59,744 bases of DNA, from assembly GCF_003334255.1 (NCBI RefSeq), contig NZ_QOWU01000029.1; one strand, 5' to 3'. Both the position numbers and the translations under genes were made by a program. The DNA is from Escherichia coli (lineage in GTDB: Bacteria; Pseudomonadota; Gammaproteobacteria; Enterobacterales; Enterobacteriaceae). Under the pieces are notes generated by a model. The model was not told where the DNA came from and did no database searches. It saw only the letters and a list, made by a program, of their open reading frames with translations. Numbering within the stretch: position 1 is the first letter of the stretch; the number at the start of each line of letters is the position of its first letter. This document shows positions 3,684 to 59,744 of the stretch, one piece after another.

Positions 3684-3810
3684 AATTATCCTGAAATCAA
3701 GCTAACGAAATATCGCCACCAGCTCCAGCGTGTCTTAACCGCCGGGCTGGTAACTGAAAAGTGGGAATAAGATAAGTTTTCTTGACTGGGAAGTAAAATA
3801 CCGTATGCGT

Positions 3811-4311
3811 TCAGTCGGCAAAATTTCGCCAAATCTCCTGGATATCTTCCATCAGATAGCCACGATAGAGCAGAAAACGCTGGATCTTAACTTTTTCTGA
3901 AAAGACAGTTGGCAAAGGTTCGCCATATTTTCGCGTCGCCTGATCGCGCGCCAGTGCGCACCAGTCGATGTCACATTCACGCATCGCTTTTTCTGTCGCT
4001 TCGCGGGAAATACCTTTCTGATTCAGTTCCTGGCGAATACGCGCAGGTCCATAACCTTTGCGGCTACGGCTGGCGATAAAGCGCGCAACAAATCGGCTGT
4101 CATCGAGATAGCCATGTTCATGGCACCAGGCAATAACGCGCTCGTAATCTTCTGCCGTAGCATCAATCTCTTCTGGGCCATTTTTGCCCATAATCGGTGC
4201 CGCGAGTTTACGTCGCAGTTCTTGCTCACTGTGATCGCGCACCGCCAGAATGCGTACCGCACGATCCAACAGGCGAGCATATGCCGGGCGACGGGATGTT
4301 GATTCTGTCAT
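3811..4311 (-). CDS. recX: RecA regulator RecX, 166 aa
   Basis: ORF track; immediately downstream of recA on the same strand; sequence recognised as RecX. Confidence 0.93.
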
Positions 4312-4327
4312 GGCATATCCTTACAAC

Positions 4328-4362
4328 TTAAAAAAGCAAAAGGGCCGCAGATGCGACCCTTG
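4328..4362 (-). terminator. Putative intrinsic terminator between recA and recX
   Basis: Minus strand reads an imperfect GC-rich hairpin (gggtcgcatctgcggccc) followed by a T-rich run (ttttgctttttt) just after the recA stop. Confidence 0.5.
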
Positions 4363-4379
4363 TGTATCAAACAAGACGA

Positions 4380-5518
<1,139 letters not shown>

Positions 5519-5520
5519 TA

Positions 5521-6021
5521 TCAAGTGTTTTGTAGAAATTGTTGCCACAAGGTCTGCAATGCATACGCAGTAGCCTGACGACGCACCGCATCACGGTCGC
5601 CGCTGAAGCATTCCCGCCGGGTAATGCCTTCACCGCGGGCAGTGGCAAAAGCAAACCAGACGGTGCCGACAGGCTTCTCTTCACTGCCGCCATCCGGCCC
5701 GGCGATACCACTAATAGACACGGCATAATCAGCACGAGCCGCTTTCAGTGCGCCTATCGCCATTTCCACCACGACGGGTTCACTCACCGCGCCATGCTGC
5801 GCCAGCGTCTCTTCGCGTACGCCGATCATCTGCGCTTTGGCTTCGTTACTGTAGGTGACAAATCCGCGTTCAAACCAGGCGGAGCTACCGGCAATATCGG
5901 TAATCACTTTCGCTACCCAACCACCGGTACAAGACTCGGCAGTTGTTACGGTTGCGCCACGGGCTTTCAGCGCCTGCCCAACCTGTTCACTTAACTGCAT
6001 CAGTTCACTGTCAGTCATCAC
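5521..6021 (-). CDS. pncC: NMN amidohydrolase PncC (CinA-family C-terminal domain protein), about 165 aa
   Basis: ORF track; upstream of recA on the same strand; sequence MTDSELMQLSEQVGQALKARGATVTTAESCTGGW typical of the CinA C-terminal domain. Confidence 0.9.
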   Translation of the reverse strand: MMTDSELMQLSEQVGQALKARGATVTTAESCTGGWVAKVITDIAGSSAWFERGFVTYSNEAKAQMIGVREETLAQHGAVSEPVVVEMAIGALKAARADYAVSISGIAGPDGGSEEKPVGTVWFAFATARGEGITRRECFSGDRDAVRRQATAYALQTLWQQFLQNT

Positions 6022-6162
6022 AACCTCTGTCAGTCAAAAATTTATGCCGGACAAGATAGCACTTTCGTCAGGAAGATGGTGTTGGCGTTGCAATTTTACG
6101 AGGAGGATTCAGAAAAAAGCTGATTAGCCAGAGGGAAGCTCACGCCCCCCTCTTGTAAATAG

Positions 6163-7248
6163 CTACTGTACTCGCGCCAGCGCCACGGCTTGTCCTAACT
6201 GCCAGACCGCCATTGCGTAATGGGTGCTGTGGTTGTAACGGGTGATGGTGTAGAAGTTCGGCAGACCGTACCAGTACTGGTAGCCGGTGCCAACATCCAG
6301 ACGCAGCAGGCTGGCTTGTTGATGGTTGCCCAGCGGCTGCTGTGGCGTTAAACCTGCGGCGGCAAGCTGCGAAATGCTGTACTTAGTTTTGAAGCCATTT
6401 GGCAAGCCTGGAGCCTGACCGTTTGCCATTACCGCGACCTGATCGCCTTTCACCCAGCCGTGCGCTTTGAAATAGTTCGCCACGCTACCGATCGCATCAA
6501 CCGGATCCCACAGGTTGATATGCCCGTCGCCGCTGAAATCTACCGCATATTGTTTGTAAGACGACGGCATAAACTGTCCGTAGCCCATCGCCCCGGCAAA
6601 GGAACCTTTCAGATTGAGCGGATCGTCCTGCTCGTCGCGCGCCATCAACAGGAAGGTTTCCAGCTCGCCAGAGAAATACTCCGCGCGGCGTGGGTAGTTA
6701 AATGACAGCGTTGCCAGCGCATCGAGGATGCGAGTTTTCCCCATCACGCGCCCCCAGCGGGTTTCAACGCCGATAATCCCGACGATAATTTCCGGCGGTA
6801 CTCCATACACCTGCCACGCGCGATTCAACGCATCTTCATACTGATTCCAGAAAACCACACCGTTCTGCACGTTGTCCGGCGTAATAAATTTTTTGCGATA
6901 ACGGAGCCATGCGCCGTTCGGACCTGATGGCGGTTTCACCGATGTGGTTGGTGCCTGGTTATCCATCAGCCGCAGTACCGAATCCAGACGCTTCGCCTGG
7001 GAGAGAATTTCCTGCAACTGCTGACGATCGAAACCGTGTTTGTTCACCATTTTGTCGATGAACTGCTGGGCATTCGGGTTATTAGCGAAATCGCCGCCCA
7101 TCTGCATCACATTGTGCTGCGGCTCAAGCAGGAAGCCGCCAGACGGCGTTCCGGTGGTCGTATCAGTCTCAGTAGGTTTTGGCTTGCTGCTACAGGCGGC
7201 AAGCAACACAAAAAGGGGAAGCAATGTTACATAACGACGCTTGAACAT
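6163..7248 (-). CDS. mltB: Membrane-bound lytic murein transglycosylase B (lipoprotein), about 361 aa; the track ORF is extended to 7353
   Basis: ORF track; the internal Met followed by a lipobox (LLAAC) marks the likely real start. Confidence 0.9.
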   Translation of the reverse strand: MFKRRYVTLLPLFVLLAACSSKPKPTETDTTTGTPSGGFLLEPQHNVMQMGGDFANNPNAQQFIDKMVNKHGFDRQQLQEILSQAKRLDSVLRLMDNQAPTTSVKPPSGPNGAWLRYRKKFITPDNVQNGVVFWNQYEDALNRAWQVYGVPPEIIVGIIGVETRWGRVMGKTRILDALATLSFNYPRRAEYFSGELETFLLMARDEQDDPLNLKGSFAGAMGYGQFMPSSYKQYAVDFSGDGHINLWDPVDAIGSVANYFKAHGWVKGDQVAVMANGQAPGLPNGFKTKYSISQLAAAGLTPQQPLGNHQQASLLRLDVGTGYQYWYGLPNFYTITRYNHSTHYAMAVWQLGQAVALARVQ

Positions 7249-24093: not shown

Positions 24094-24175
24094 TGCCGGA
24101 TGCGGCGTGAACGCCTTATCCGGCCTACATGTCGCACGAACCATGAAGGCCCGATAAGCGCAGCGCATCGGGCAA
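24094..24175. repeat. REP cluster between ascB and hycI
   Basis: gtgccggatgcggcgtgaacgccttatccggcctac and a second REP-like unit gaaggcccgataagcgcagcgcatcgggca. Confidence 0.85.
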
Positions 24176-36009: not shown

Positions 36010-38088
36010 ATGTCATATACACCGATGAGTGATCTCGGACAACAAGGGTTGTTCGACATCACTCGGACACTATTGCAGCAGCCCGATCTGGCCTCGCTGT
36101 GTGAGGCTCTTTCGCAACTGGTAAAGCGTTCTGCGCTCGCCGACAACGCGGCTATTGTGTTGTGGCAAGCGCAGACTCAACGTGCGTCTTATTACGCGTC
36201 GCGTGAAAAAGACACCCCCATTAAATATGAAGACGAAACTGTTCTGGCACACGGTCCGGTACGCAGCATTTTGTCGCGCCCTGATACGCTGCATTGCAGT
36301 TACGAAGAATTTTGTGAAACCTGGCCGCAGCTGGACGCAGGTGGGCTATACCCAAAATTTGGTCACTATTGCCTGATGCCACTGGCGGCGGAAGGGCATA
36401 TTTTTGGTGGCTGTGAATTTATTCGTTATGACGATCGCCCCTGGAGCGAAAAAGAGTTCAATCGTCTGCAAACATTTACGCAGATCGTTTCTGTCGTCAC
36501 CGAACAAATCCAGAGCCGCGTCGTTAACAATGTCGACTATGAGTTGTTATGCCGGGAACGCGATAACTTCCGCATCCTGGTCGCCATCACCAACGCGGTG
36601 CTTTCCCGCCTGGATATGGACGAACTGGTCAGCGAAGTCGCCAAAGAAATCCATTACTATTTCGACATTGACGATATCAGTATCGTCTTACGCAGCCACC
36701 GTAAAAACAAACTCAACATCTACTCCACTCACTATCTTGATAAACAGCATCCCGCCCACGAACAGAGCGAAGTCGATGAAGCCGGAACCCTCACCGAACG
36801 CGTGTTCAAAAGTAAAGAGATGCTGCTGATCAATCTCCACGAGCGGGACGATTTAGCCCCCTATGAACGCATGTTGTTCGACACCTGGGGCAACCAGATT
36901 CAAACCTTGTGCCTGTTACCGCTGATGTCTGGCGACACCATGCTGGGCGTGCTGAAACTGGCGCAATGCGAAGAGAAAGTGTTTACCACTACCAATCTGA
37001 ATTTACTGCGCCAGATTGCCGAACGTGTGGCAATCGCTGTCGATAACGCCCTCGCCTATCAGGAAATCCATCGTCTGAAAGAACGGCTGGTTGATGAAAA
37101 CCTCGCCCTGACCGAGCAGCTCAACAATGTTGATAGTGAATTTGGCGAGATTATTGGCCGCAGCGAAGCCATGTACAGCGTGCTTAAACAAGTTGAAATG
37201 GTGGCGCAAAGTGACAGTACCGTGCTGATCCTCGGTGAAACTGGCACGGGTAAAGAGCTGATTGCCCGTGCGATCCATAATCTCAGTGGGCGTAATAATC
37301 GCCGCATGGTCAAAATGAACTGCGCGGCGATGCCTGCCGGATTGCTGGAAAGCGATCTGTTTGGTCATGAGCGTGGGGCTTTTACCGGTGCCAGCGCCCA
37401 GCGTATCGGTCGTTTTGAACTGGCGGATAAAAGCTCCCTGTTCCTCGACGAAGTGGGCGATATGCCACTGGAGTTACAGCCGAAGTTGCTGCGTGTATTG
37501 CAGGAACAGGAGTTTGAACGTCTCGGCAGCAACAAAATCATTCAGACGGACGTGCGTCTAATCGCCGCGACTAACCGCGATCTGAAAAAAATGGTCGCCG
37601 ACCGTGAGTTCCGTAGCGATCTCTATTACCGCCTGAACGTATTCCCGATTCACCTGCCGCCACTACGCGAGCGTCCGGAAGATATTCCGCTGCTGGCGAA
37701 AGCCTTTACCTTCAAAATTGCCCGTCGTCTGGGGCGCAATATCGACAGCATTCCTGCCGAGACGCTGCGCACCTTGAGCAACATGGAGTGGCCGGGTAAC
37801 GTACGCGAACTGGAAAACGTCATTGAGCGCGCGGTATTGCTAACACGCGGTAACGTGCTGCAGCTGTCATTGCCAGATATTGTTTTACCGGAACCTGAAA
37901 CGCCGCCTGCCGCAACGGTTGTCGCCCTGGAGGGCGAAGATGAATATCAGTTGATTGTGCGCGTGCTGAAAGAAACCAACGGCGTGGTTGCCGGGCCTAA
38001 AGGCGCTGCGCAACGTCTGGGGCTGAAACGCACGACCCTGCTGTCACGGATGAAGCGGCTGGGAATTGATAAATCGGCATTGATTTAA
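36010..38088 (+). CDS. fhlA: Formate hydrogenlyase transcriptional activator FhlA (sigma54-dependent), about 692 aa; the track ORF starts at 35974
   Basis: ORF track; GAF domains, AAA+ sigma54-interaction core ([14 protein letters not shown]) and C-terminal HTH. Confidence 0.95.
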   Translation: MSYTPMSDLGQQGLFDITRTLLQQPDLASLCEALSQLVKRSALADNAAIVLWQAQTQRASYYASREKDTPIKYEDETVLAHGPVRSILSRPDTLHCSYEEFCETWPQLDAGGLYPKFGHYCLMPLAAEGHIFGGCEFIRYDDRPWSEKEFNRLQTFTQIVSVVTEQIQSRVVNNVDYELLCRERDNFRILVAITNAVLSRLDMDELVSEVAKEIHYYFDIDDISIVLRSHRKNKLNIYSTHYLDKQHPAHEQSEVDEAGTLTERVFKSKEMLLINLHERDDLAPYERMLFDTWGNQIQTLCLLPLMSGDTMLGVLKLAQCEEKVFTTTNLNLLRQIAERVAIAVDNALAYQEIHRLKERLVDENLALTEQLNNVDSEFGEIIGRSEAMYSVLKQVEMVAQSDSTVLILGETGTGKELIARAIHNLSGRNNRRMVKMNCAAMPAGLLESDLFGHERGAFTGASAQRIGRFELADKSSLFLDEVGDMPLELQPKLLRVLQEQEFERLGSNKIIQTDVRLIAATNRDLKKMVADREFRSDLYYRLNVFPIHLPPLRERPEDIPLLAKAFTFKIARRLGRNIDSIPAETLRTLSNMEWPGNVRELENVIERAVLLTRGNVLQLSLPDIVLPEPETPPAATVVALEGEDEYQLIVRVLKETNGVVAGPKGAAQRLGLKRTTLLSRMKRLGIDKSALI

Positions 38089-38124
38089 CTGCAAATTGCC
38101 GGACAGATCTGCCTGTCCGGCATA

Positions 38125-38478
38125 CTATTCATGAGGTTTTTTCGGACGATATTTTTCCGGCAGTTCTGGCACCGGACGCTTGTCATCGATGAGATGACGC
38201 ACGGTTAAGATCGGATGACGCCACAGCATTCTCGGCCCGGCCCAACGCATAATCTGTTTCATCTCTTCACGCTTTGCAGGCTGGTAACAGTGCACCGGAC
38301 ACTGCTTACAGGCTGGTTTCTCTTCGCCGAACACACATTTATCCAGCCGCTTTTGCGCGTAAACAAACAACGCCTCGTAATGCTCCGGCTCCGCTGACGC
38401 CTGCGGGCATTTCGTTTGATAAAGATCGATCATTTTTTTAATCGTCAGTTTTTCACGAGAGATACGCTTGCCGGACAT
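38125..38478 (-). CDS. ygbA: Nitrous oxide-stimulated promoter family protein YgbA, 117 aa
   Basis: ORF track; cysteine-containing small protein between fhlA and mutS. Confidence 0.85.
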   Translation of the reverse strand: MSGKRISREKLTIKKMIDLYQTKCPQASAEPEHYEALFVYAQKRLDKCVFGEEKPACKQCPVHCYQPAKREEMKQIMRWAGPRMLWRHPILTVRHLIDDKRPVPELPEKYRPKKPHE

Positions 38479-38495
38479 GCTGCCTCCACCTCATT

Positions 38496-38518
38496 AAGAT
38501 GTATTTATATTACATCTT
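38496..38518. promoter_or_regulatory. NsrR-type operator palindrome just upstream of ygbA
   Basis: aagatgtattt-a-tattacatctt is a near-perfect 11-1-11 inverted repeat about 18 bp upstream of the ygbA start. Confidence 0.7.
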
Positions 38519-38764
38519 AATCTTAAAGGGCACTATGACTCCAAAGAAGAAGGGTTAGCCAACCGATACAATTTTGCGTACTTGCTTCATAAGCATCACG
38601 CAAAAGCTGCAAAACAGCATCTTTCCCGGAACCAGCATCAAGAACTCGCCGTTCGCTTCTTCCCCTGAAATGATTAACTCCGGTATCATGTGCGCCTTAT
38701 GTGATTACAACGAAAATAAAAACCATCACACCCCATTTAATATCAGGGAACCGGACATAACCCC

Positions 38765-41326
38765 ATGAGTGCAATAGAAAATTTCGACGCCCATACGCCC
38801 ATGATGCAGCAGTATCTCAGGCTGAAAGCCCAGCATCCCGAGATCCTGCTGTTTTACCGGATGGGTGATTTTTATGAACTGTTTTATGACGACGCAAAAC
38901 GCGCGTCGCAACTGCTGGATATTTCACTGACCAAACGCGGTGCTTCGGCGGGAGAGCCGATCCCGATGGCGGGGATTCCCTACCATGCGGTGGAAAACTA
39001 TCTCGCCAAACTGGTGAATCAGGGAGAGTCCGTTGCCATCTGCGAACAAATTGGCGATCCGGCGACCAGCAAAGGTCCGGTTGAGCGCAAAGTTGTGCGT
39101 ATCGTTACGCCAGGCACCATCAGCGATGAAGCCCTGTTGCAGGAGCGTCAGGACAACCTGCTGGCGGCTATCTGGCAGGACAGCAAAGGTTTCGGCTACG
39201 CGACGCTGGATATCAGTTCCGGGCGTTTTCGCCTGAGCGAACCGGCTGACCGCGAAACGATGGCGGCAGAACTGCAACGCACTAATCCTGCGGAACTGCT
39301 GTATGCAGAAGATTTTGCTGAAATGTCGTTAATTGAAGGCCGTCGCGGCCTGCGCCGTCGCCCGCTGTGGGAGTTTGAAATCGACACCGCGCGCCAGCAG
39401 TTGAATCTGCAATTTGGGACCCGCGATCTGGTCGGTTTTGGCGTCGAGAACGCGCCGCGCGGACTTTGTGCTGCCGGTTGTCTGTTGCAGTATGCGAAAG
39501 ATACCCAACGTACGACTCTGCCGCATATTCGTTCCATCACCATGGAACGTGAGCAGGACAGCATCATTATGGATGCCGCGACGCGTCGTAATCTGGAAAT
39601 CACCCAGAACCTGGCGGGTGGTGCGGAAAATACGCTGGCTTCTGTGCTCGACTGCACCGTCACGCCGATGGGCAGCCGTATGCTGAAACGCTGGCTGCAT
39701 ATGCCAGTGCGCGATACCCGCGTGTTGCTTGAGCGCCAGCAAACTATTGGCGCATTGCAGGATTTCACCGCCGGGCTACAGCCGGTACTGCGTCAGGTCG
39801 GCGACCTGGAACGTATTCTGGCACGTCTGGCTTTACGAACTGCTCGCCCACGCGATCTGGCCCGTATGCGCCACGCTTTCCAGCAACTGCCGGAGCTGCG
39901 TGCGCAGTTAGAAACTGTCGATAGTGCACCGGTACAGGCGCTACGTGAGAAGATGGGCGAGTTTGCCGAGCTGCGCGATCTGCTGGAGCGAGCAATCATC
40001 GACACACCGCCGGTGCTGGTACGCGACGGTGGTGTTATCGCATCGGGCTATAACGAAGAGCTGGATGAGTGGCGCGCGCTGGCTGACGGCGCGACCGATT
40101 ATCTGGAGCGTCTGGAAGTCCGCGAGCGTGAACGTACCGGCCTGGACACGCTGAAAGTTGGCTTTAATGCGGTGCACGGCTACTACATTCAAATCAGCCG
40201 TGGGCAAAGCCATCTGGCACCCATCAACTACATGCGTCGCCAGACGCTGAAAAACGCCGAGCGCTACATCATTCCAGAGCTAAAAGAGTACGAAGATAAA
40301 GTTCTCACCTCAAAAGGCAAAGCACTGGCACTGGAAAAACAGCTTTATGAAGAGCTGTTCGACCTGCTGTTGCCGCATCTGGAAGCGTTGCAACAGAGCG
40401 CGAGCGCGCTGGCGGAACTCGACGTGCTGGTTAACCTGGCGGAACGGGCCTATACCCTGAACTACACCTGCCCGACCTTCATTGATAAACCGGGCATTCG
40501 CATTACCGAAGGTCGCCATCCGGTAGTTGAACAAGTACTGAATGAGCCATTTATCGCCAACCCGCTGAATCTGTCGCCGCAGCGCCGCATGTTGATCATC
40601 ACCGGTCCGAACATGGGCGGTAAAAGTACCTATATGCGCCAGACCGCACTGATTGCGCTGATGGCCTACATCGGCAGCTATGTACCGGCACAAAAAGTCG
40701 AGATTGGACCTATCGATCGCATCTTTACCCGCGTAGGCGCGGCAGATGACCTGGCGTCCGGGCGCTCAACCTTTATGGTGGAGATGACTGAAACCGCCAA
40801 TATTTTACATAACGCCACCGAATACAGTCTGGTGTTAATGGATGAGATCGGGCGTGGAACGTCCACCTACGATGGTCTGTCGCTGGCGTGGGCGTGCGCG
40901 GAAAATCTGGCGAATAAGATTAAGGCATTGACGTTATTTGCTACCCACTATTTCGAGCTGACCCAGTTACCGGAGAAAATGGAAGGCGTCGCTAACGTGC
41001 ATCTCGATGCACTGGAGCACGGCGACACCATTGCCTTTATGCACAGCGTGCAGGATGGCGCGGCGAGCAAAAGCTACGGCCTGGCGGTTGCAGCTCTGGC
41101 AGGCGTGCCAAAAGAGGTTATTAAGCGCGCACGGCAAAAGCTGCGTGAGCTGGAAAGCATTTCGCCGAACGCCGCCGCTACGCAAGTGGATGGTACGCAA
41201 ATGTCTTTGCTGTCAGTACCAGAAGAAACTTCGCCTGCGGTCGAAGCTCTGGAAAATCTTGATCCGGATTCACTCACCCCGCGTCAGGCGCTGGAGTGGA
41301 TTTATCGCTTGAAGAGCCTGGTGTAA
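38765..41326 (+). CDS. mutS: DNA mismatch repair protein MutS, 853 aa
   Basis: ORF track; mismatch-binding N-terminus and Walker [10 protein letters not shown]. Confidence 0.97.
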
Positions 41327-41332
41327 TAACAA

Positions 41333-41364
41333 TTCCCGATAGTCTTTTGCTATCGGGAATATTA
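41333..41364 (+). terminator. Putative intrinsic terminator downstream of mutS
   Basis: Hairpin ttcccgatagtcttttgctatcgggaa followed by tatt immediately after the mutS stop. Confidence 0.55.
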
Positions 41365-41431
41365 ACGACAACTGACGAATAAAATAAAAACACCCTGTAT
41401 AATAGGAAAGCTTATTTTACAGGGTAAAACC

Positions 41432-42088
41432 ATGCCATCTACACGCTATCAAAAAATCAATGCCCATCACTATCGCCATATATGGGTCGTTGGTGATATT
41501 CATGGTGAATATCAGTTATTACAATCCCGCTTACATCAACTCTCTTTTTTCCCCGAAATCGACTTACTTATTTCTGTCGGCGATAATATTGATCGTGGAC
41601 CGGAGAGTCTTGACGTCCTGCGCCTGCTAAACCAACCCTGGTTTACGTCGGTTAAAGGCAACCACGAAGCGATGGCGCTTGAGGCATTCGAAACTGGCGA
41701 TGGCAATATGTGGCTTGCCAGCGGTGGTGACTGGTTTTTCGATTTAAATGATTCAGAGCAACAAGAGGCAATAGATCTGTTGCTGAAATTCCATCACCTT
41801 CCACATATTATTGAAATCACTAACGACAACATAAAATATGCCATCGCACATGCAGATTATCCGGGGAGTGAATATCTCTTTGGTAAAGAAATAGCGGAGA
41901 GCGAATTACTCTGGCCTGTTGATCGTGTGCAGAAATCGCTTAATGGCGAGTTACAACAAATAAACGGCGCTGATTATTTTATATTTGGACATATGATGTT
42001 TGATAACATTCAGACGTTCGCTAACCAGATTTATATTGATACCGGATCGCCGAACAGCGGGCGGCTGTCATTTTATAAAATAAAGTAG
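41432..42088 (+). CDS. pphB: Serine/threonine protein phosphatase 2 (lambda-phosphatase-like), 218 aa
   Basis: ORF track; metallophosphatase motifs GDIHG, GDNIDRG, GNHE. Confidence 0.93.
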   Translation: MPSTRYQKINAHHYRHIWVVGDIHGEYQLLQSRLHQLSFFPEIDLLISVGDNIDRGPESLDVLRLLNQPWFTSVKGNHEAMALEAFETGDGNMWLASGGDWFFDLNDSEQQEAIDLLLKFHHLPHIIEITNDNIKYAIAHADYPGSEYLFGKEIAESELLWPVDRVQKSLNGELQQINGADYFIFGHMMFDNIQTFANQIYIDTGSPNSGRLSFYKIK

Positions 42089-42089
42089 T

Positions 42090-42117
42090 CTCATGCTTCT
42101 TCTGTGAAGCATGAGTA
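42090..42117. terminator. Hairpin between convergent pphB and ygbI, candidate bidirectional terminator
   Basis: ctcatgcttcttctgtgaagcatgag perfect stem; a T-rich tract follows on the minus strand. Confidence 0.45.
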
Positions 42118-42138
42118 ACCCGGTGTTATTGCAGGCCA

Positions 42139-42936
42139 TTATTCATTTTTCGCTACCAGCAAAGAGAGATCCTGCTTCACCAGCGCGCGACTGGCACTCT
42201 CCGGCAAACCGTCGTCTGTAATAATCTGATCAAACTCGCTTAATGGTAACGCCAGCCATGTCGCCACCTGACCATATTTCGTCGCATCACAGACCAAAAC
42301 TCGCTGGCGGCTGGCACTGGCAATCGCCCGTTTCACCGTGACTTTATCTTCCGCTGGCGTAGAAATCCCCCGCACACTCCATGACGATGCAGAAATAAAA
42401 GCCTGATCAATCATCAGGCTGCGCAGCATGGTCGCAGCGGCTTCCCCGACACAGGAACGGTTTTCCCGACACACTGCACCGCCAGTGTGAATAATTGTGC
42501 AATTACTGTTGTCGAGCAAGTAGTCCGCAATAACGAAATCGTTTGTGACCACAGTCAGTGACTCCATGTGAATCAGATGCTGTGCTATCGCTAACGTGGT
42601 CGTTCCCGCATCCAGATAGATACAACTTCCCGGCTGAACAAGACTTGCCGCCAGCTTGCCAATAGCCGCTTTTTGCGTCATTGCCAGCGCAGTTTTTACC
42701 TGATGAGAAGGTTCATGCGCCACGCGTCCCGGAGACTGGACGCCTCCGGACACCAGCACAACGGCTCCCTGCTGCTCCAGTTTTTGTAAATCCCGACGAA
42801 TGGTCATATGTGACACATTCATTCTGTCCGTTAGTTCAGCAATACTGACAATGCCTTTTTCAGCTACCATCTCAAGGATGATTTGGCGACGCTCTACGGG
42901 TATCAACTTTTGCTCCTTCCTTTGTCCTGCTGACAT
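42139..42936 (-). CDS. ygbI: DeoR-family transcriptional regulator YgbI, up to 265 aa; start uncertain
   Basis: ORF track; DeoR HTH (MNVSHMTIRRDL) and sugar-phosphate-binding C-terminal domain; divergent from ygbJ. Confidence 0.88.
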   Translation of the reverse strand: MSAGQRKEQKLIPVERRQIILEMVAEKGIVSIAELTDRMNVSHMTIRRDLQKLEQQGAVVLVSGGVQSPGRVAHEPSHQVKTALAMTQKAAIGKLAASLVQPGSCIYLDAGTTTLAIAQHLIHMESLTVVTNDFVIADYLLDNSNCTIIHTGGAVCRENRSCVGEAAATMLRSLMIDQAFISASSWSVRGISTPAEDKVTVKRAIASASRQRVLVCDATKYGQVATWLALPLSEFDQIITDDGLPESASRALVKQDLSLLVAKNE

Positions 42937-43101
42937 TCTACGCTATTTGCCTGCGAAACGTGCGCGGCGCAACTAACGCTTAGTTCACATAAAATAACAC
43001 ACAATGTTAATTTATGTGAATCAGATCACCATATCGTTATCTTCCAGCGCTTACATTCACAATATCAAACAAAATATCACTTAAATTAACAAGGAGAGCA
43101 G

Positions 43102-44010
43102 ATGAAAACGGGATCTGAGTTTCATGTCGGTATCGTTGGCTTAGGGTCAATGGGAATGGGAGCAGCACTGTCATGTGTCCGCGCAGGTCTTTCTACCTGG
43201 GGCGCAGACCTGAACAGCAATGCCTGCGCTACGTTGAAAGAGGCAGGTGCTTGCGGGGTTTCTGATAACGCCGCGACGTTTGCCGAAAAACTGGACGCAC
43301 TGCTGGTGCTGGTGGTCAATGCGGCCCAGGTTAAACAGGTGCTGTTTGGTGAAACAGGCGTTGCACAACATCTGAAACCCGGTACGGCAGTAATGGTTTC
43401 TTCCACTATCGCTAGTGCTGATGCGCAAGAAATTGCTACCGCTCTGGCTGGATTCGATCTGGAAATGCTGGATGCGCCAGTTTCTGGTGGTGCAGTAAAA
43501 GCCGCTAACGGTGAAATGACTATCATGGCCTCCGGTAGCGATATTGCCTTTGAACGACTGGCACCCGTGCTGGAAGCCGTTGCCGGAAAAGTTTATCGCA
43601 TAGGTGCAGAACCGGGACTAGGTTCGACCGTAAAAATTATTCACCAGTTGTTAGCGGGCGTACATATTGCTGCCGGAGCCGAAGCGATGGCACTTGCAGC
43701 CCGTGCGGGGATCCCGCTGGATGTGATGTATGACGTCGTGACCAATGCCGCCGGAAATTCCTGGATGTTCGAAAACCGGATGCGTCATGTGGTGGATGGC
43801 GATTACACCCCGCATTCAGCCGTCGATATTTTTGTTAAGGATCTTGGTCTGGTTGCCGATACAGCCAAAGCCCTGCACTTCCCGCTGCCATTGGCCTCAA
43901 CAGCATTGAATATGTTCACCAGCGCCAGTAACGCGGGTTACGGGAAAGAAGACGATAGCGCAGTTATCAAGATTTTCTCTGGCATCACTCTACCGGGAGC
44001 GAAATCATGA
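43102..44010 (+). CDS. ygbJ: NAD-dependent 3-hydroxyisobutyrate dehydrogenase-family oxidoreductase (L-threonate dehydrogenase-like), 302 aa
   Basis: ORF track; Rossmann motif VGIVGLGSMGMGAA. Confidence 0.9.
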   Translation: MKTGSEFHVGIVGLGSMGMGAALSCVRAGLSTWGADLNSNACATLKEAGACGVSDNAATFAEKLDALLVLVVNAAQVKQVLFGETGVAQHLKPGTAVMVSSTIASADAQEIATALAGFDLEMLDAPVSGGAVKAANGEMTIMASGSDIAFERLAPVLEAVAGKVYRIGAEPGLGSTVKIIHQLLAGVHIAAGAEAMALAARAGIPLDVMYDVVTNAAGNSWMFENRMRHVVDGDYTPHSAVDIFVKDLGLVADTAKALHFPLPLASTALNMFTSASNAGYGKEDDSAVIKIFSGITLPGAKS

Positions 44011-45269
44011 TCAAGATTGGCGTTATCGCCGATGATTTTACCGGCGCGACGGATATCGCCAGTTTTCTGGTGGAAAACGGTCTACCAACGGTACAAATTA
44101 ACGGTGTTCCAACAGGTAAAATGCCGGAAGCAATCGACGCACTGGTGATCAGCCTGAAAACGCGCTCCTGTCCAGTGGTTGAAGCCACACAGCAATCGCT
44201 GGCGGCTCTGAGCTGGTTGCAACAGCAAGGTTGCAAACAGATCTATTTCAAATACTGCTCTACTTTCGACAGTACGGCGAAAGGTAATATTGGCCCGGTT
44301 ACCGATGCCTTAATGGATGCTCTCGACACGCCGTTTACGGTCTTCTCTCCGGCCCTGCCGGTCAACGGACGTACGGTTTATCAGGGGTATTTGTTCGTAA
44401 TGAATCAACTGCTGGCCGAATCCGGGATGCGCCATCACCCGGTAAATCCCATGACCGACAGCTATCTTCCCCGTCTGGTTGAAGCGCAATCCACAGGGCG
44501 CTGCGGCGTCGTTTCGGCACATGTTTTCGAACAAGGTGTGGATGCCGTTCGTCAAGAGCTGGCTCGCTTACAGCAAGAGGGCTACCGCTACGCGGTGCTT
44601 GATGCGCTGACCGAACACCATCTGGAAATTCAGGGAGAAGCCTTGCGCGATGCCCCACTGGTAACGGGCGGTTCTGGTCTGGCGATTGGCCTGGCCCGGC
44701 AGTGGGCGCAAGAAAACGGTAACCAGGCTCGCAAAGCAGGGCGTCCGCTCGCTGGGCGCGGCGTAGTGCTCTCCGGTTCATGCTCTCAAATGACCAACCG
44801 CCAGGTAGCACATTACCGTCAAATTGCACCAGCCCGTGAAGTTGATGTGGCACGCTGCCTCTCAATTGAAACTCTGGCCGCTTATGCACACGAACTGGCA
44901 GAGTGGGTTCTGGGCCAGGAAAGTGTACTTGCTCCACTGGTTTTTGCCACCGCCAGCACTGACGCATTGGCAGCAATTCAACAGCAATACGGTGCACAAA
45001 AAGCCAGTCAGGCAGTAGAAACACTGTTTTCTCAACTAGCGGCGCGGTTAGCAGCGGAAGGCGTGACACGCTTTATTGTCGCAGGCGGTGAGACCTCCGG
45101 CGTAGTCACACAGAGCCTGGGAATAAAAGGGTTTCATATTGGCCCAACCATTTCCCCCGGCGTGCCGTGGGTAAACGCACTGGATAAGCCTGTCTCACTC
45201 GCCCTTAAATCTGGCAACTTCGGTGATGACGCCTTTTTTTCACGAGCCCAAAGAGAGTTTTTATCATGA
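44007..45269 (+). CDS. ygbK: DUF1537-family four-carbon acid-sugar kinase (3-oxo-tetronate kinase-like), 420 aa
   Basis: ORF track; N-terminus MIKIGVIADDFTGATD typical of the family; start overlaps the ygbJ stop. Confidence 0.88.
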   Translation: MIKIGVIADDFTGATDIASFLVENGLPTVQINGVPTGKMPEAIDALVISLKTRSCPVVEATQQSLAALSWLQQQGCKQIYFKYCSTFDSTAKGNIGPVTDALMDALDTPFTVFSPALPVNGRTVYQGYLFVMNQLLAESGMRHHPVNPMTDSYLPRLVEAQSTGRCGVVSAHVFEQGVDAVRQELARLQQEGYRYAVLDALTEHHLEIQGEALRDAPLVTGGSGLAIGLARQWAQENGNQARKAGRPLAGRGVVLSGSCSQMTNRQVAHYRQIAPAREVDVARCLSIETLAAYAHELAEWVLGQESVLAPLVFATASTDALAAIQQQYGAQKASQAVETLFSQLAARLAAEGVTRFIVAGGETSGVVTQSLGIKGFHIGPTISPGVPWVNALDKPVSLALKSGNFGDDAFFSRAQREFLS

Positions 45270-45904
45270 GCGATTTCGCAAAAGTAGAGCAGTCTTTGCG
45301 AGAGGAGATGACGCGGATTGCCAGTTCATTCTTTCAGCGCGGCTATGCAACCGGTTCGGCTGGCAATCTGTCGCTGCTTTTACCTGACGGGAATTTACTG
45401 GCGACACCGACAGGTTCATGCCTGGGCAATCTCGATCCGCAGCGGCTTTCCAAAGTCGCCGCGGATGGCGAATGGTTAAGTGGTGACAAACCCTCGAAAG
45501 AGGTGCTCTTTCATCTGGCGCTGTATCGCAACAATCCGCGTTGTAAAGCGGTGGTGCATTTGCACAGCACATGGTCGACGGCGCTTTCCTGCCTGCAAGG
45601 GCTGGACAGCAGCAACGTTATTCGTCCGTTCACACCATACGTGGTGATGCGGATGGGAAATGTCCCGCTGGTGCCTTATTACCGACCGGGCGATAAACGC
45701 ATCGCACAGGATCTGGCGGAACTGGCAGCAGACAATCAGGCTTTTTTACTGGCAAATCATGGCCCAGTGGTTTGCGGTGAAAGCCTGCAAGAAGCCGCCA
45801 ACAATATGGAAGAGCTGGAGGAAACGGCAAAGCTGATTTTTATTCTCGGTGACCGCCCGATCCGTTATCTGACCGCAGGTGAAATTGCGGAATTAAGGAG
45901 TTAA
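45266..45904 (+). CDS. ygbL: Class II aldolase/adducin-family protein (3-oxo-tetronate 4-phosphate decarboxylase-like), 212 aa
   Basis: ORF track; class II aldolase fold features; start overlaps the ygbK stop. Confidence 0.88.
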
Positions 45905-45908
45905 TGCA

Positions 45909-46685
45909 ATGCCTCGTTTTGCAGCTAATTTATCCATGATGTTCACCGAAGTGCCTTTTATTGAACGCTTCGCCGCAGCGCGAAAAGCCGGGTTCGATGC
46001 TGTGGAATTTCTGTTTCCCTATGACTACTCCACCCTGCAAATCCAAAAGCAACTGGAGCAAAACCATCTGACACTGGCGCTGTTCAATACCGCTCCCGGA
46101 GATATTAATGCGGGGGAATGGGGATTATCCGCCCTTCCCGGACGTGAGCACGAAGCACACGCAGACATCGACCTGGCACTGGAATATGCATTGGCGCTCA
46201 ATTGTGAACAAGTCCATGTGATGGCAGGCGTCGTGCCCGCTGGCGAAGATGCTGAACGGTACCGGGCAGTATTTATCGATAATCTCCGCTACGCTGCCGA
46301 CCGCTTTGCGCCACACGGCAAGCGAATATTAGTTGAAGCACTCAGCCCCGGCGTTAAGCCTCATTATCTCTTCTCCAGCCAGTATCAGGCACTGGCTATT
46401 GTTGAAGAAGTTGCGCGAGATAACGTGTTTATTCAACTAGATACTTTTCATGCGCAAAAAGTAGATGGCAACCTGACGCATTTAATCCGCGACTACGCCG
46501 GGAAATATGCGCACGTACAAATTGCCGGACTACCTGATCGACATGAACCGGACGATGGAGAAATCAACTATCCGTGGCTGTTCCGCCTGTTCGATGAGGT
46601 GGGATATCAGGGCTGGATCGGTTGTGAATATAAACCTCGTGGCCTCACCGAAGAAGGGCTTGGCTGGTTTGACGCCTGGCGCTAA
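45909..46685 (+). CDS. ygbM: Xylose-isomerase-like TIM-barrel protein (hydroxypyruvate isomerase family; 2-oxo-tetronate isomerase-like), 258 aa
   Basis: ORF track; family recognised from sequence. Confidence 0.88.
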
Positions 46686-46773
46686 TTCGTTAAATCCCTA
46701 ATTACAACGTACCCATACATCCCCCCATCTACGGATGGGGTAGGTTAACTATAACTTTCAGACAGGGTTTCCC

Positions 46774-48138
46774 ATGTCCACAATTACATTGTTATGCATT
46801 GCGTTAACTGGCGTAATCATGCTGTTGCTGCTGGTCATCAAGGCAAAGGTACAACCATTCGTTGCTCTGCTCCTCGTCAGCCTGTTAGTCGCACTTGCGG
46901 CGGGTATACCGGCGGGCGAAGTGGGTAAAGTGATGATCGCCGGGATGGGCGGTGTGCTTGGTTCCGTCACTATTATTATTGGTCTGGGCGCTATGCTGGG
47001 GCGTATGATCGAACACTCTGGTGGTGCAGAGTCACTGGCTAATTATTTCAGTCGCAAGTTAGGTGACAAACGAACTATCGCTGCGCTGACTCTGGCAGCG
47101 TTCTTCCTCGGTATTCCCGTCTTCTTTGATGTCGGCTTTATTATTCTTGCGCCAATCATTTACGGTTTTGCCAAGGTTGCCAAAATATCGCCACTCAAAT
47201 TTGGCCTGCCTGTCGCTGGGCTCATGCTCACTGTTCACGTGGCGGTACCGCCGCATCCAGGCCCTGTCGCCGCAGCGGGGTTACTCCACGCAGACATCGG
47301 CTGGCTAACCATCATCGGTATTGCGATTTCTATTCCCGTAGGGGTTGTTGGCTACTTTGCAGCGAAAATAATCAATAAGCGCCAATATGCGATGTCAGTA
47401 GAAGTACTGGAACAGATGCAACTGGCTCCGGCCAGTGAGGAAGGCGCGACAAAATTAAGCGATAAAATAAATCCACCGGGCGTCGCGCTGGTCACCTCGC
47501 TAATTGTTATTCCTATCGCGATTATCATGGCGGGTACGGTTTCCGCAACACTGATGCCGCCTTCGCATCCCCTGCTTGGTACGCTACAGCTGATCGGCTC
47601 ACCAATGGTAGCTCTAATGATTGCGCTGGTGCTGGCATTCTGGTTATTGGCTTTACGTCGCGGCTGGAGCTTACAACACACCAGCGACATTATGGGCTCA
47701 GCGCTTCCTACTGCGGCGGTAGTGATTTTGGTTACTGGTGCTGGAGGGGTATTTGGCAAAGTGCTGGTGGAATCGGGCGTCGGCAAAGCCCTTGCCAACA
47801 TGCTACAAATGATTGACCTGCCTCTGTTACCAGCCGCATTTATTATTTCACTGGCGCTGCGTGCATCGCAGGGGTCAGCAACCGTAGCAATACTGACAAC
47901 CGGCGGGTTACTCTCAGAAGCGGTGATGGGATTGAATCCGATTCAGTGCGTATTGGTGACGCTGGCAGCCTGCTTTGGTGGGCTTGGTGCGTCACATATT
48001 AATGACTCAGGGTTCTGGATTGTGACCAAATATCTGGGGTTATCGGTAGCAGACGGTCTGAAAACCTGGACAGTGTTAACGACCATTCTCGGTTTTACCG
48101 GATTCTTAATTACCTGGTGCGTATGGGCGGTAATTTGA
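46774..48138 (+). CDS. ygbN: GntP-family acid-sugar permease, 454 aa
   Basis: ORF track; polytopic GntP-type membrane protein. Confidence 0.9.
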   Translation: MSTITLLCIALTGVIMLLLLVIKAKVQPFVALLLVSLLVALAAGIPAGEVGKVMIAGMGGVLGSVTIIIGLGAMLGRMIEHSGGAESLANYFSRKLGDKRTIAALTLAAFFLGIPVFFDVGFIILAPIIYGFAKVAKISPLKFGLPVAGLMLTVHVAVPPHPGPVAAAGLLHADIGWLTIIGIAISIPVGVVGYFAAKIINKRQYAMSVEVLEQMQLAPASEEGATKLSDKINPPGVALVTSLIVIPIAIIMAGTVSATLMPPSHPLLGTLQLIGSPMVALMIALVLAFWLLALRRGWSLQHTSDIMGSALPTAAVVILVTGAGGVFGKVLVESGVGKALANMLQMIDLPLLPAAFIISLALRASQGSATVAILTTGGLLSEAVMGLNPIQCVLVTLAACFGGLGASHINDSGFWIVTKYLGLSVADGLKTWTVLTTILGFTGFLITWCVWAVI

Positions 48139-48150
48139 CCTTAATAAAAA

Positions 48151-48176
48151 GGTCCGATGGGCATCGGACCTTTTAT
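48151..48176 (+). terminator. Intrinsic terminator downstream of ygbN
   Basis: Hairpin ggtccgatgggcatcggacc followed by ttttatt. Confidence 0.75.
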
Positions 48177-48186
48177 TGTGCACAGA

Positions 48187-48218
48187 AAAGGCCAGCCTCG
48201 CTTGAGACTGGCCTTTCT
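48187..48218 (-). terminator. Intrinsic terminator downstream of rpoS
   Basis: Minus strand reads the hairpin ggccagtctcaagcgaggctggcc followed by ttttct. Confidence 0.75.
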
Positions 48219-48231
48219 GACAGATGCTTAC

Positions 48232-49224
48232 TTACTCGCGGAACAGCGCTTCGATATTCAGCCCCTGCGTTTGCAGGATTTCACGCAAACGGCGCAGGCC
48301 TTCAACCTGAATCTGGCGAACACGTTCACGGGTGAGGCCAATTTCACGACCTACATCTTCCAGTGTTGCCGCTTCGTACCCCAGCAAACCGAATCGACGT
48401 GCCAGCACTTCACGCTGTTTGGCGTTCAGCTCGAACAGCCATTTGACGATGCTCTGCTTCATATCGTCATCTTGCGTGGTATCTTCCGGACCGTTCTCTT
48501 TTTCATCGGCCAGGATGTCCAGCAACGCTTTTTCGGAATCACCACCCAGCGGGGTGTCTACCGAGGTAATGCGCTCGTTAAGACGAAGCATACGGCTGAC
48601 GTCATCAACTGGCTTATCCAGTTGCTCTGCGATCTCTTCCGCACTTGGTTCATGGTCCAGCTTATGGGACAACTCACGTGCGGTTCGCAGGTAAACGTTC
48701 AGCTCCTTTACGATGTGAATCGGCAAACGAATAGTACGGGTTTGGTTCATAATCGCCCGTTCAATCGTCTGGCGAATCCACCAGGTTGCGTATGTTGAGA
48801 AGCGGAAACCACGTTCCGGGTCAAACTTCTCTACCGCGCGGATCAGCCCCAGGTTGCCCTCTTCGATAAGGTCCAGCAACGCCAGACCACGATTGCCATA
48901 ACGGCGGGCAATTTTTACCACCAGACGCAAGTTACTCTCGATCATCCGGCGGCGAGAGGCGACATCTCCACGCAGTGCGCGACGCGCAAAATAAACTTCT
49001 TCTTCGGCCGTTAACAGTGGTGAATAACCAATCTCACCAAGGTAAAGCTGAGTCGCGTCCAACACACGCTGTGTGGCTCCCTGCGATAACAGTTCCTCTT
49101 CGGCCAAATCGTTATCACTGGGTTCCTCTTCTACTAAGGCCTTTTCGTCAAAAACCTCAACTCCGTTCTCATCAAATTCCGCATCTTCATTTAAATCATG
49201 AACTTTCAGCGTATTCTGACTCAT
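48232..49224 (-). CDS. rpoS: RNA polymerase sigma factor RpoS (sigma-38), about 330 aa; the track ORF is extended to 49260
   Basis: ORF track; sigma70-family regions 2-4; canonical start [21 protein letters not shown]. Confidence 0.97.
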
Positions 49225-49286
49225 AAGGTGGCTCCTACCCGTGATCCCTTGACGGAACATTCAAGCAAAAGCCTGGTTCCGCCGAT

Positions 49287-50426
49287 TTATCGCTGCGGCA
49301 AATAACGCAGCGGGTTTACGGATTTCCCCTTGTAACGAATTTCAAAATGCAAGCGTGTTGAACTGGTTCCGGTGCTACCCATGGTTGCTATTTTTTGCCC
49401 CGCCTTCACTTCTTGTTGTTCCCGGACCAGCATTGTGTCGTTATGGGCGTAGGCACTCAGGTAATCATCATTATGTTTGATGATAATCAGATTACCGTAG
49501 CCGCGCAGCGCGTTACCAGCATAAACAACGCGGCCATCTGCGGTCGCGATAATTGCCTGTCCTTTGCTGCCTGCGATATCAATCCCCTTGTTGCCCCCCT
49601 CAGAAGCGCCAAAGGTTTCGATCACTTTGCCCTCAGTCGGCCAGCGCCAGGTGGAGATAGGCGTACTGGTTGATGTACTGCTGACAGTTGGCTCGGTTGT
49701 GCTTGCTGTTGGTACCGTTACAGGCGCTGTGACCGTGGTCGCAGCTGGCTTGTTGTTCGGCAACATTTTGTTAGCACTCTGTTCACCCGAAGATTCAGAA
49801 TACGTAATTGTCGGTTGCGACGCAACAGCAACGGTGGAATTTTGTGCAGGCTTGATCACAACTCCTTGCTCTGCTGCGTCGGCCTGGGTAATGGCATTTC
49901 CGCCAGTGATTGGCGTACCGGAAGCATTACCCACCTGCAAGGTCTGACCAACGTTCAGCGCGTATGGTGCCTGAATATTGTTGCGCTGAGCAAGGTCACG
50001 GAAATCGTTGCCAGTAATCCAGGCGATATAGAAAAGTGTGTCGCCTTTTTTCACGGTATAGGTACTGCCGCTATAACTGCCTTTCGGAATGTTCCCATAC
50101 TGACGGTTATAGACGATGCGTCCGTTTTCCATCTGTACCGGCTGCTGAGCTACTGGCTGCACTGGCTGGATTTGCGGTTGTTGAGTAGCCTGAATTTGTG
50201 GCTGCTGTACCGGCTGAATTTGCGGTTGCTGCGCTGTAGACGTCGTCCCCATTTTCGGCGGCGGCGTAATCAACATACCAGAATTAGTATTTGCAGGCGC
50301 ATTGCCATTAACGGAGCTGACCGGTGCCGGTGGATTTGAAGTGTCAGAACAGCCTGCCAGCCATAGCGAAACCAGTGACAAAGCCGCAATGCGGCGAACG
50401 GTGAATTTTGGGCTTCCCGCGCTCAT
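49287..50426 (-). CDS. nlpD: Murein hydrolase activator NlpD (LysM and LytM domains, lipoprotein), 379 aa
   Basis: ORF track; lipobox LAGCS, Q/P-rich repeat, LysM and M23-peptidase-like C-terminus. Confidence 0.95.
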
Positions 50427-50565
50427 TTATCCCCCAGGAAAAATTGGTTAATAACCAGTGACATAATTACCGTGCAAGGCACCCTACTGAACACTGGAAA
50501 AGATGTTCACGATACGCTGACCTGCGGCAAAATAACCAGGAAAAATCCAGGTATTTCCTCACGTT

Positions 50566-51927
<1,362 letters not shown>

Positions 51928-59313: not shown

Positions 59314-59646
59314 GAGTTCTACCGCAGGGGCGGGGGAACTCCAAGTGATATCCATCATCGCATCCAGTGCGCCCGGTTTATCCCCGCTGACGCGGGGAAC
59401 ACACATGAATGTCGGTTCAGACCGTGTTTTTACCCGGTTTATCCCCGCTGGCGCGGGGAACACGGAATGATATTTCAATAAATAATTATAACAATCGGTT
59501 TATCCCCGCTGGCGCGGGGAACACCCCTCACACCGATTCGCCAAACGGTGGAGAAGCGGTTTATCCCCGCTGGCGCGGGGAACACAGCCGGGCGAAATTT
59601 TGATTCATCGTGATGACCGGTTTATCCCCGCTGGCGCGGGGAACAC
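59314..59646 (-). CRISPR. Type I-E-style CRISPR array end: five 29-bp repeats with four 32-bp spacers, plus a degenerate terminal repeat and a 31-bp spacer-like segment on the iap side
   Basis: Repeats cggtttatccccgctggcgcggggaacac at 59374, 59435, 59496, 59557 and 59618; the first carries G to A (gctgacgcg); a degenerate unit lies at about 59314-59342; + strand shows the reverse complement of the I-E repeat, so transcription is inferred on the minus strand. Confidence 0.93.
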
Positions 59647-59744
59647 CCTGAACGGTGGGGAAAAACCCCATAAGCGCTAACTTAAGGGTTGAACCATCTG
59701 AAGAATGCGACGCCTCGGTGCCTCGTTAAGACGATGCCTCGCGT

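Follow-up and report, generated by a model that had tools for sequence, protein, structure and literature searches.

L-Threonate is a four-carbon acid sugar that arises from the breakdown of ascorbate (vitamin C). A four-step bacterial route from L-threonate to dihydroxyacetone phosphate, running through LtnD, OtnI, OtnK and OtnC, was published in 2016 by Zhang et al. (PNAS 113:E4161) and is followed here in the accounts of two citing papers (PMC12540250 and PMC12994016), according to which growth on L-threonate was lost upon gene deletion in the species tested. In Escherichia coli, b2736, b2738 and b2739 are given with the matching Enzyme Commission numbers of the pathway (PMC12506659), and repression by the DeoR-family protein YgbI has been in print since 2021. 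We analysed a 59,744-nucleotide stretch of E. coli DNA (contig NZ_QOWU01000029.1; hereafter the window), in which positions 42139–48138 correspond to the mutS-rpoS interval of the chromosome and carry six genes: ygbI on the minus strand, opposite ltnD-otnK-otnC-otnI-ygbN (ygbJKLMN) on the plus strand. Our reading, with a probability of roughly 0.8, is that these genes form a module for L-threonate catabolism, in which ltnD to ygbN would constitute one operon repressed by YgbI at TGTTAATnnnTGTGA sites. Genes, pathway and repressor are already public, as are four protein structures, and RefSeq uses the names ltnD and otnK. Our additions are small: an intact kinase allele to set against a frameshift in K-12, a proposed operator, and a model of the operon that agrees with transcription as one unit.

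A protein was taken as identified when it scored above the curated threshold of its NCBIfam equivalog model and covered the profile end to end, and all six proteins exceed the cut-offs of the families named here. LtnD (YgbJ; 302 residues, 43102–44010, plus strand) matches the model of the NAD-dependent L-threonate 2-dehydrogenase (NF043037, 473.7 bits, cut-off 350), contains NAD_binding_2 together with NAD_binding_11 (Pfam), and has as its nearest solved structure a close homologue, 3G0O. OtnK (YgbK; 420 residues, 44007–45269, plus strand) is an intact DUF1537-family 3-oxo-tetronate kinase (NF043035, 598 bits, cut-off 350), with SBD_N (PF07005) at residues 4–228 (E = 7.5e-76) and NBD_C (PF17042) at residues 253–411 (E = 7e-42), both models being matched over their full length; its solved homologues are the Salmonella protein 3DQQ (E 2.9e-221), Haemophilus influenzae HI1011 (1YZY, E 2.7e-144) and 5DMH. 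OtnC (YgbL; 45266–45904, plus strand) matches NF043034 (334.8 bits, cut-off 250) and carries Pfam Aldolase_II at residues 13–190, and the structure of E. coli YgbL is available as 6VOP. OtnI (YgbM; 258 residues, 45909–46685, plus strand), a xylose-isomerase-like TIM barrel, matches the 2-oxo-tetronate isomerase model (NF043033, 396.4 bits, cut-off 325) and Pfam AP_endonuc_2, and its E. coli structure is 1K77. YgbN (454 residues, 46774–48138, plus strand) is a GntP-family acid-sugar:H+ symporter by NF007332 (825.7 bits, cut-off 524) and by TIGR00791 (344.7 bits, cut-off 292.75). Finally, YgbI (255 residues, 42139–42906, minus strand) scores 481.9 bits against NF040890 (cut-off 400) and contains HTH_DeoR (PF08220) at residues 6–59 and DeoRC (PF00455) at residues 76–231. 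Look-alike models for tartronate semialdehyde reductase, fuculose-phosphate aldolase, hydroxypyruvate isomerase and D-threonate kinase all stay below their cut-offs. With NCBIfam E-values from 1e-100 to 1e-248 and profiles covered in full, the six genes are real rather than chance open reading frames (ORFs).

An earlier note, written from the sequence alone, had called a dehydrogenase, a DUF1537 kinase, a class II aldolase-family enzyme, a TIM-barrel isomerase and a GntP permease, and the equivalog models bear these assignments out. For YgbL the called fold holds, and the enzyme in this pathway is a decarboxylase, not an aldolase; its fold is Aldolase_II and not the F_bP_aldolase of a three-step route, a distinction drawn from PMC12540250. 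Public names lag for two of the genes: NCBIfam NF007441, and hence RefSeq and the Prokaryotic Genome Annotation Pipeline (PGAP), labels YgbM an 'HPr family phosphocarrier protein' despite its TIM-barrel isomerase identity, and PGAP calls ygbL merely 'aldolase'. Both look like errors or lags of the annotation pipeline.

The gene order is as compact as the note had described, with a divergent DeoR regulator facing a packed operon; the ORF list and NCBIfam agree with this, and the coordinates of the note begin exactly at the stop of ygbI and end at that of ygbN. The four pathway enzymes are contiguous at 43102–46685. The ltnD/otnK and otnK/otnC junctions are 4-nt overlaps (ATGA in each case), so the start-to-stop overlap claimed for ygbJ, ygbK and ygbL is present here; otnC and otnI are 4 nt apart, and otnI and ygbN 88 nt. 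The RefSeq start of ygbI is a TTG at 42906 preceded by AGGAG, although the ORF remains open further upstream to an ATG at 42936, and the NF040890 profile begins at residue 11 of this long form.

The same organization recurs far from E. coli. A scan of genome contigs for YgbK with exact peptide patterns gave 16 loci, a set that does not include Salmonella or Klebsiella. The order ygbI-ltnD-otnK-otnC-otnI-ygbN is found, with proteins 52–70% identical, in Anaerobiospirillum, in Succinivibrio and in a further genome of the Succinivibrionaceae; a gut Desulfovibrio has the same order, with ygbI not visible at the start of the contig, and Aureimonas has a permuted version of the cluster. Wherever a locus reaches downstream (15 loci), otnK and otnC are neighbours. 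In E. albertii the gene order is the same and protein identity is 92–98%.

From these assignments a scheme of events can be proposed. YgbN, presumably an L-threonate importer, would bring the acid into the cell, where LtnD would oxidise it at C2 with NAD+ to 2-oxo-tetronate. OtnI would convert this product to 3-oxo-tetronate, which OtnK would phosphorylate at C4 in an ATP-dependent reaction, and OtnC would convert 3-oxo-tetronate 4-phosphate to dihydroxyacetone phosphate and CO2. The five genes would be transcribed as a single operon, with translational coupling of the first three, and the transcript would stop at an intrinsic terminator before rpoS. YgbI, bound to repeated TGTTAATnnnTGTGA sites across both divergent promoters and a CRP site, would keep the operon and ygbI itself silent until an inducer appears; by analogy with other DeoR-family repressors, this inducer is probably a phosphorylated intermediate produced by OtnK. 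The enzyme activities are known from orthologues, and YgbI binding and repression are known in K-12; in the window we find orthology, synteny, an intact kinase and a conserved motif. We infer what YgbN transports, which sequence is the operator, where the promoter lies and what acts as inducer.

The kinase gene is where the window departs from the laboratory reference. A run of five C residues within otnK (45154–45158, plus strand) is reduced to four in K-12 MG1655 (NC_000913.3, near 2863481) and in K-12-derived laboratory strains, and the missing base shifts the frame after Pro384. The K-12 product consists of 384 native residues followed by ACRG, 388 residues in all. The block PGVPW...LKSGNFG..FF..AQ, which falls within the nucleotide-binding domain of OtnK and is invariant in 11 of 11 full-length sequences (from Gamma-, Alpha- and Betaproteobacteria, Desulfovibrio and Planctomycetes), is kept in the window and lost from the K-12 protein. 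The K-12 allele is present as an exact match in 371 of about 4574 genomes that have the gene, whereas the 61-mer of the intact allele is exact in 3382; the 40 of the 371 that were listed are all K-12 derivatives or laboratory constructs. Over 12.7 kb (38001–50673) the window and MG1655 are 99.8% identical, with 23 substitutions and one indel, and this single indel is the deletion in the C run. Judged from its sequence, the truncated kinase is likely inactive. Literature searches returned no discussion of the K-12 lesion, which does not show that the lesion is unreported.

The frameshift also alters how the operon appears in the reference strain. MG1655 has a gap of 91–92 nt between ygbK and ygbL in place of the overlap, and this apparent gap is the reason why RegulonDB lists ygbJK and ygbLM as separate units. 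An RNA sequencing (RNA-seq) study (PMC4168707) describes a transcript that crosses the 92-nt ygbK-ygbL gap. We would extend these observations only tentatively, at somewhat less than even odds. K-12 may be a natural otnK mutant and wild E. coli may have a working pathway; if a phosphorylated OtnK product is what releases YgbI, much as sugar phosphates often act on repressors of the DeoR family, K-12 could neither catabolise L-threonate nor induce the operon. The 'cryptic' status of the genes and the division into ygbJK, ygbLM and ygbN would then be an artefact of the laboratory lineage, and the TGTTAATnnnTGTGA repeats would be an operator that competes with CRP.

The regulatory evidence comes from K-12 and can be carried over to the window by coordinate. 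YgbI has a single binding site genome-wide, in the ygbI/ygbJ spacer, by chromatin immunoprecipitation with exonuclease treatment (ChIP-exo), and deletion of ygbI raises ygbJ, ygbK, ygbL and ygbM, as well as ygbN, by log2 5.6, 5.2, 5.1, 4.6 and 4.0, respectively, in RNA-seq (PMC8464067). That YgbI binds at one place and that all five genes are derepressed alike is consistent with ltnD to ygbN being one operon. The earlier note's view that regulation is little studied is outdated, as published data include ChIP-exo, RNA-seq and the growth phenotypes seen in ygbI mutants. After coordinate conversion, the sole ChIP-exo peak lies in the divergent control region between ygbI and ltnD (42907–43101). 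The conversion was checked with the motif of a FliA (sigma-28) promoter, TAAGGATCTTGGTCTGGTTGCCGATACA, which lies within ltnD and points toward otnK (43836–43863, plus strand) and is an exact match to the published ChIP-seq motif (PMC4183435).

Three stretches of the control region match TGTTAATnnnTGTGA with one mismatch or none, and we regard these repeats as the probable YgbI operator. Candidate site A (TGTTATTTTATGTGA, 42985–42999, minus strand) overlaps the predicted ygbI −10 element. Candidate site B (TGTTAATTTATGTGA, 43005–43019, plus strand) contributes its TGTGA as the left half of the CRP site, and A and B together make a palindrome with 16-nt arms. Candidate site C (TGTTAATTTAAGTGA, 43077–43091, minus strand) lies immediately 5' of the ltnD Shine-Dalgarno sequence, and the equivalent position is also occupied in E. 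albertii and Klebsiella. Copies of the motif likewise stand upstream of ltnD in E. albertii, in Anaerobiospirillum and two further Succinivibrionaceae, in Aureimonas and in a Klebsiella-derived plasmid copy, which has two more such sites. Across 232 kb of window and loci, 15 of 17 sites with at most one mismatch fall within 3.6 kb upstream of ltnD, a count that includes E. coli, from which the motif was derived, and E. albertii, which is not independent of it; the four distant loci by themselves have nine sites upstream of ltnD and zero elsewhere. Relative to K-12, the spacer has two single-nucleotide polymorphisms (SNPs), at 43034 and 43054, both outside the proposed sites. A AACTAAcgcTTAGTT palindrome at 42970–42984, inside the ChIP-exo peak, was also considered as operator, but E. 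albertii does not conserve it, and it was therefore placed after the three sites.

The Klebsiella spacer used in this comparison was taken from blaSHV-12 plasmids. A Klebsiella-type ygbI-ltnD fragment, with about 70% DNA identity to E. coli, lies beside blaSHV-12 between IS26 copies on more than 1000 plasmids (1157 records), for example at 2169–4975 of the K. pneumoniae plasmid pKpnB4_1, and is presumably chromosomal DNA that was mobilised along with blaSHV.

Two promoters and a CRP site would share this spacer with YgbI. The CRP site taTGTGAatcagaTCACCata (43013–43033, core 43015–43030) was located in K-12 by Footprint-seq (PMC12871828), and its sequence is identical in the window; since TGTGA is common to site B and the CRP site, YgbI and CRP would compete. 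The predicted ygbI promoter, TTCACA-18-TATTTT (43020–42991, minus strand), is covered by sites A and B, which fits autoregulation. The sigma-70 RNA polymerase holoenzyme binds the ygbI/ltnD spacer in vitro, and H-NS has been flagged there. For ltnD, Shimada et al. proposed TTCACA-16-GTTAAT at 42984–43011, while a class II CRP arrangement would instead place the −10 at 43052–43057 and the transcription start near 43064. In the window, this candidate −10 is changed from TATATT to TACATT by T>C at 43054, a variant whose exact 61-mer is found in 2 of 5426 genomes. A second rare change, A>C at 47221, gives YgbN I150L and is found in 3 of 5426. We considered the two as a signal of selection and rejected this idea: about a dozen differences from the closest genome are scattered over 59.7 kb, and two in 6 kb is close to chance.

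The ends of both transcription units can be proposed from folding. An intrinsic terminator of the ltnD-ygbN operon is predicted at 48146–48177 (plus strand), where AGGTCCGATG...CATCGGACCT is followed by TTTTATT. A second hairpin, at 48184–48219, serves rpoS on the minus strand, so that two strong hairpins stand back to back between the convergent ygbN and rpoS genes; the fold of 48135–48235 has z-scores of −5.5 (plus strand) and −7.1 (minus strand). In other E. coli lineages, this ygbN-rpoS junction (48146–48219) carries insertions of 2–3 kb. On the other side, a hairpin at 42090–42115 (minus strand), between the convergent pphB and ygbI stops, gives a terminator-like match with a poor T-tract; 42085–42142 folds on the minus strand at −21 kcal/mol (z = −5.3), and the hairpin may be the ygbI terminator. 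The otnI-ygbN spacer showed no significant structure upon folding (z = −0.7), and a scan of 41000–50500 against Rfam gave no family at the gathering threshold.

Several observations weigh against the assignment to L-threonate or against its regulatory part. First, our literature search gave no report of E. coli growing on L-threonate and no such activity for the E. coli enzymes. Second, the E. coli phenotypes that were found concern only non-cognate substrates (L-tartrate, meso-tartrate and 2,4-dihydroxybutyrate), in ygbI mutants of K-12. Third, the cluster is dispensable: about 16% of genomes do not have it, and K-12 and strain ML35 carry it in disrupted form. Fourth, the ChIP-exo interval converts to 42954–42984, which abuts site A and does not cover sites A and B. 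Fifth, the two placements of the ltnD promoter disagree.

The strongest of the rival explanations, although we consider it unlikely, is a different substrate: the true substrate in E. coli would be another acid, such as L- or meso-tartrate, L-idonate, D-gluconate, another C4–C6 acid sugar or 2,4-dihydroxybutyrate, and L-threonate would be an over-propagation from orthologues. Deletion of ygbI in K-12 permits growth on L-tartrate (PMC8464067), both lines of a meso-tartrate evolution experiment gained ygbI mutations (PMC6452873), and loss of the repressor derepresses ygbN and improves growth on 2,4-dihydroxybutyrate. LtnD homologues can use L-idonate, an otnK gene was required for gluconate use in one Pectobacterium strain, and YgbJ resembles tartronate semialdehyde reductases at 197 bits. 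These phenotypes, however, require loss of the repressor, which implies that the compounds are not inducers, and the authors of the evolution study call the activities promiscuous, a view that we share. They were also obtained in K-12, where OtnK lacks its invariant C-terminus, so the tartrate and dihydroxybutyrate phenotypes are independent of full-length kinase and do not represent the full pathway. The models for the rival functions fall below their cut-offs while those of the threonate pathway exceed theirs, and a synteny of four enzymes across phyla fits one dedicated pathway.

Less probable again is that the module is used for D-erythronate as well, as the earlier note had proposed in describing an L-threonate/D-erythronate module feeding dihydroxyacetone phosphate into glycolysis. 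In the published scheme, the two acids meet at 2-oxo-tetronate, and OtnI, OtnK and OtnC are common to both. D-Erythronate requires a separate 2-dehydrogenase (DenD), however; the one dehydrogenase of the cluster is of the L-threonate type, and pphB and rpoS enclose no further gene. As far as the cluster itself goes, for a DenD may be encoded elsewhere in the genome, the L-threonate branch alone is supported, with four enzymes above their cut-offs. The least likely rival, a decaying and effectively cryptic remnant with no current selective role in E. coli, could appeal to the genomes without the cluster, to the lesions in K-12, ML35 and 13E0725 and to tight repression in glucose medium, but all six genes are kept in about 84% of genomes, each window ORF is full length against its profile, the candidate operator and the CRP site are intact, as are the translational coupling and the terminator, E. 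albertii keeps the order at high identity, and the K-12 lesion is confined to laboratory derivatives among the 40 listed.

The cluster is complete in 4575–4577 of 5426 complete E. coli genomes (~84%), and many of these differ from the window by at most one or two bases over the 6.25 kb of 42000–48250. In about 845 of the 5426 (~16%), only pphB and rpoS remain, with a segment encoding a hydroxyarylic acid decarboxylase and a MarR regulator between them; in other genomes, either this segment or one encoding a metallo-β-lactamase (MBL)-fold hydrolase is present besides the cluster. The mutS-rpoS region is known as a mosaic, of which the window represents 'pattern II', the type of K-12 and ECOR group A (PMC4209514), and the absence from about 16% of genomes fits this mosaic. 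The description of the locus as the main accessory-type metabolic island is therefore only half right: it is missing from a substantial minority of genomes and lies in a mosaic region, but its composition is ordinary and it is complete in the great majority. Horizontal acquisition as an island was considered and rejected, having no compositional support (G+C 0.49–0.58, as in the flanks). Among individual strains, ML35 (NZ_CP025747.1; locus 3567–6470) has ygbL split by a 2.8-kb segment between two IS1 copies, and 13E0725 has the cluster partly deleted. The ML35 segment contains a gene of the CDP-glycerol glycerophosphotransferase family and a hypothetical gene.

The cluster is flanked by mutS (38765–41326) and pphB (41432–42088) next to ygbI, and by rpoS and nlpD beyond ygbN. 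Three observations concern the window outside the cluster. Codon 33 of rpoS (49128, minus strand) reads GAG (Glu33) here and CAG (Gln33) in K-12 MG1655; we take this to be a known polymorphic or laboratory-variable position. By correspondence with the annotation of strain FORC 064, an array of clustered regularly interspaced short palindromic repeats (CRISPR) adjoins iap at the end of the window (about 59374–59707), and substitutions and indels against FORC 064 are clustered in this segment. At 24127–24146, too, a small group of substitutions and indels sets the window apart from that strain, in otherwise identical sequence.

The practical meaning of the comparison lies mainly in the choice of strain. 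Nearly all E. coli work on this operon, including ChIP-exo, RNA-seq, tartrate evolution and 2,4-dihydroxybutyrate growth, was done in K-12, whose kinase is without the invariant motif, and caution is warranted in reading it. Because the K-12 kinase has lost its C-terminal motif, use of L-threonate is best judged in a strain with the intact allele. The predicted operator offers a concrete target for footprinting. The substrate matters as one of the breakdown products of vitamin C, in the gut and on plants.

Set beside the systems described so far, the locus agrees most closely with the four-step pathway of Zhang et al. All four enzymes, the DeoR-type regulator, the transporter and the end product match, and there is no structural difference; the E. 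coli proteins are assigned by orthology, and OtnK is full length here, unlike in the K-12 reference entry. The K-12 MG1655 locus ygbI-ygbJKLMN (b2735–b2740) agrees with it in genes, gene order and flanks (mutS-pphB and rpoS), and differs by its 1-bp ygbK deletion, which removes the ygbK-ygbL overlap, and by the two control-region SNPs. The three-step bypass and the Ltn3D route (PMC12994016) share substrate and product with the window module; both lack OtnI, and the bypass decarboxylase is of the F_bP_aldolase type, whereas the window has OtnI and an OtnC of Aldolase_II fold.

Among the kinases of the DUF1537 family, the paralogues DtnK (D-threonate kinase), DenK (D-erythronate kinase) and OiaK (3-oxo-isoapionate kinase) share with OtnK a two-domain fold of SBD_N and NBD_C and the use of ATP to phosphorylate small acid sugars. 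The window kinase nevertheless scores far under the cut-offs of the D-threonate kinase DtnK (131.7 bits, cut-off 450) and OiaK (108.8 bits, cut-off 700) models. Its partner here is a class II aldolase-fold decarboxylase, while DtnK and DenK were reportedly described in 2016 as partnered with PdxA2-type dehydrogenases. Among the regulators, YgbI resembles GlpR, AgaR, SrlR, UlaR and DeoR in its HTH_DeoR and DeoRC domains, its divergent position, its autoregulation and its multiple promoter-overlapping operator repeats, the last two being predicted in the case of YgbI. It is a separate equivalog all the same, reaching 166 bits against the AgaR model (cut-off 260) and 163 bits against that of GlpR of Halobacteria (cut-off 300).

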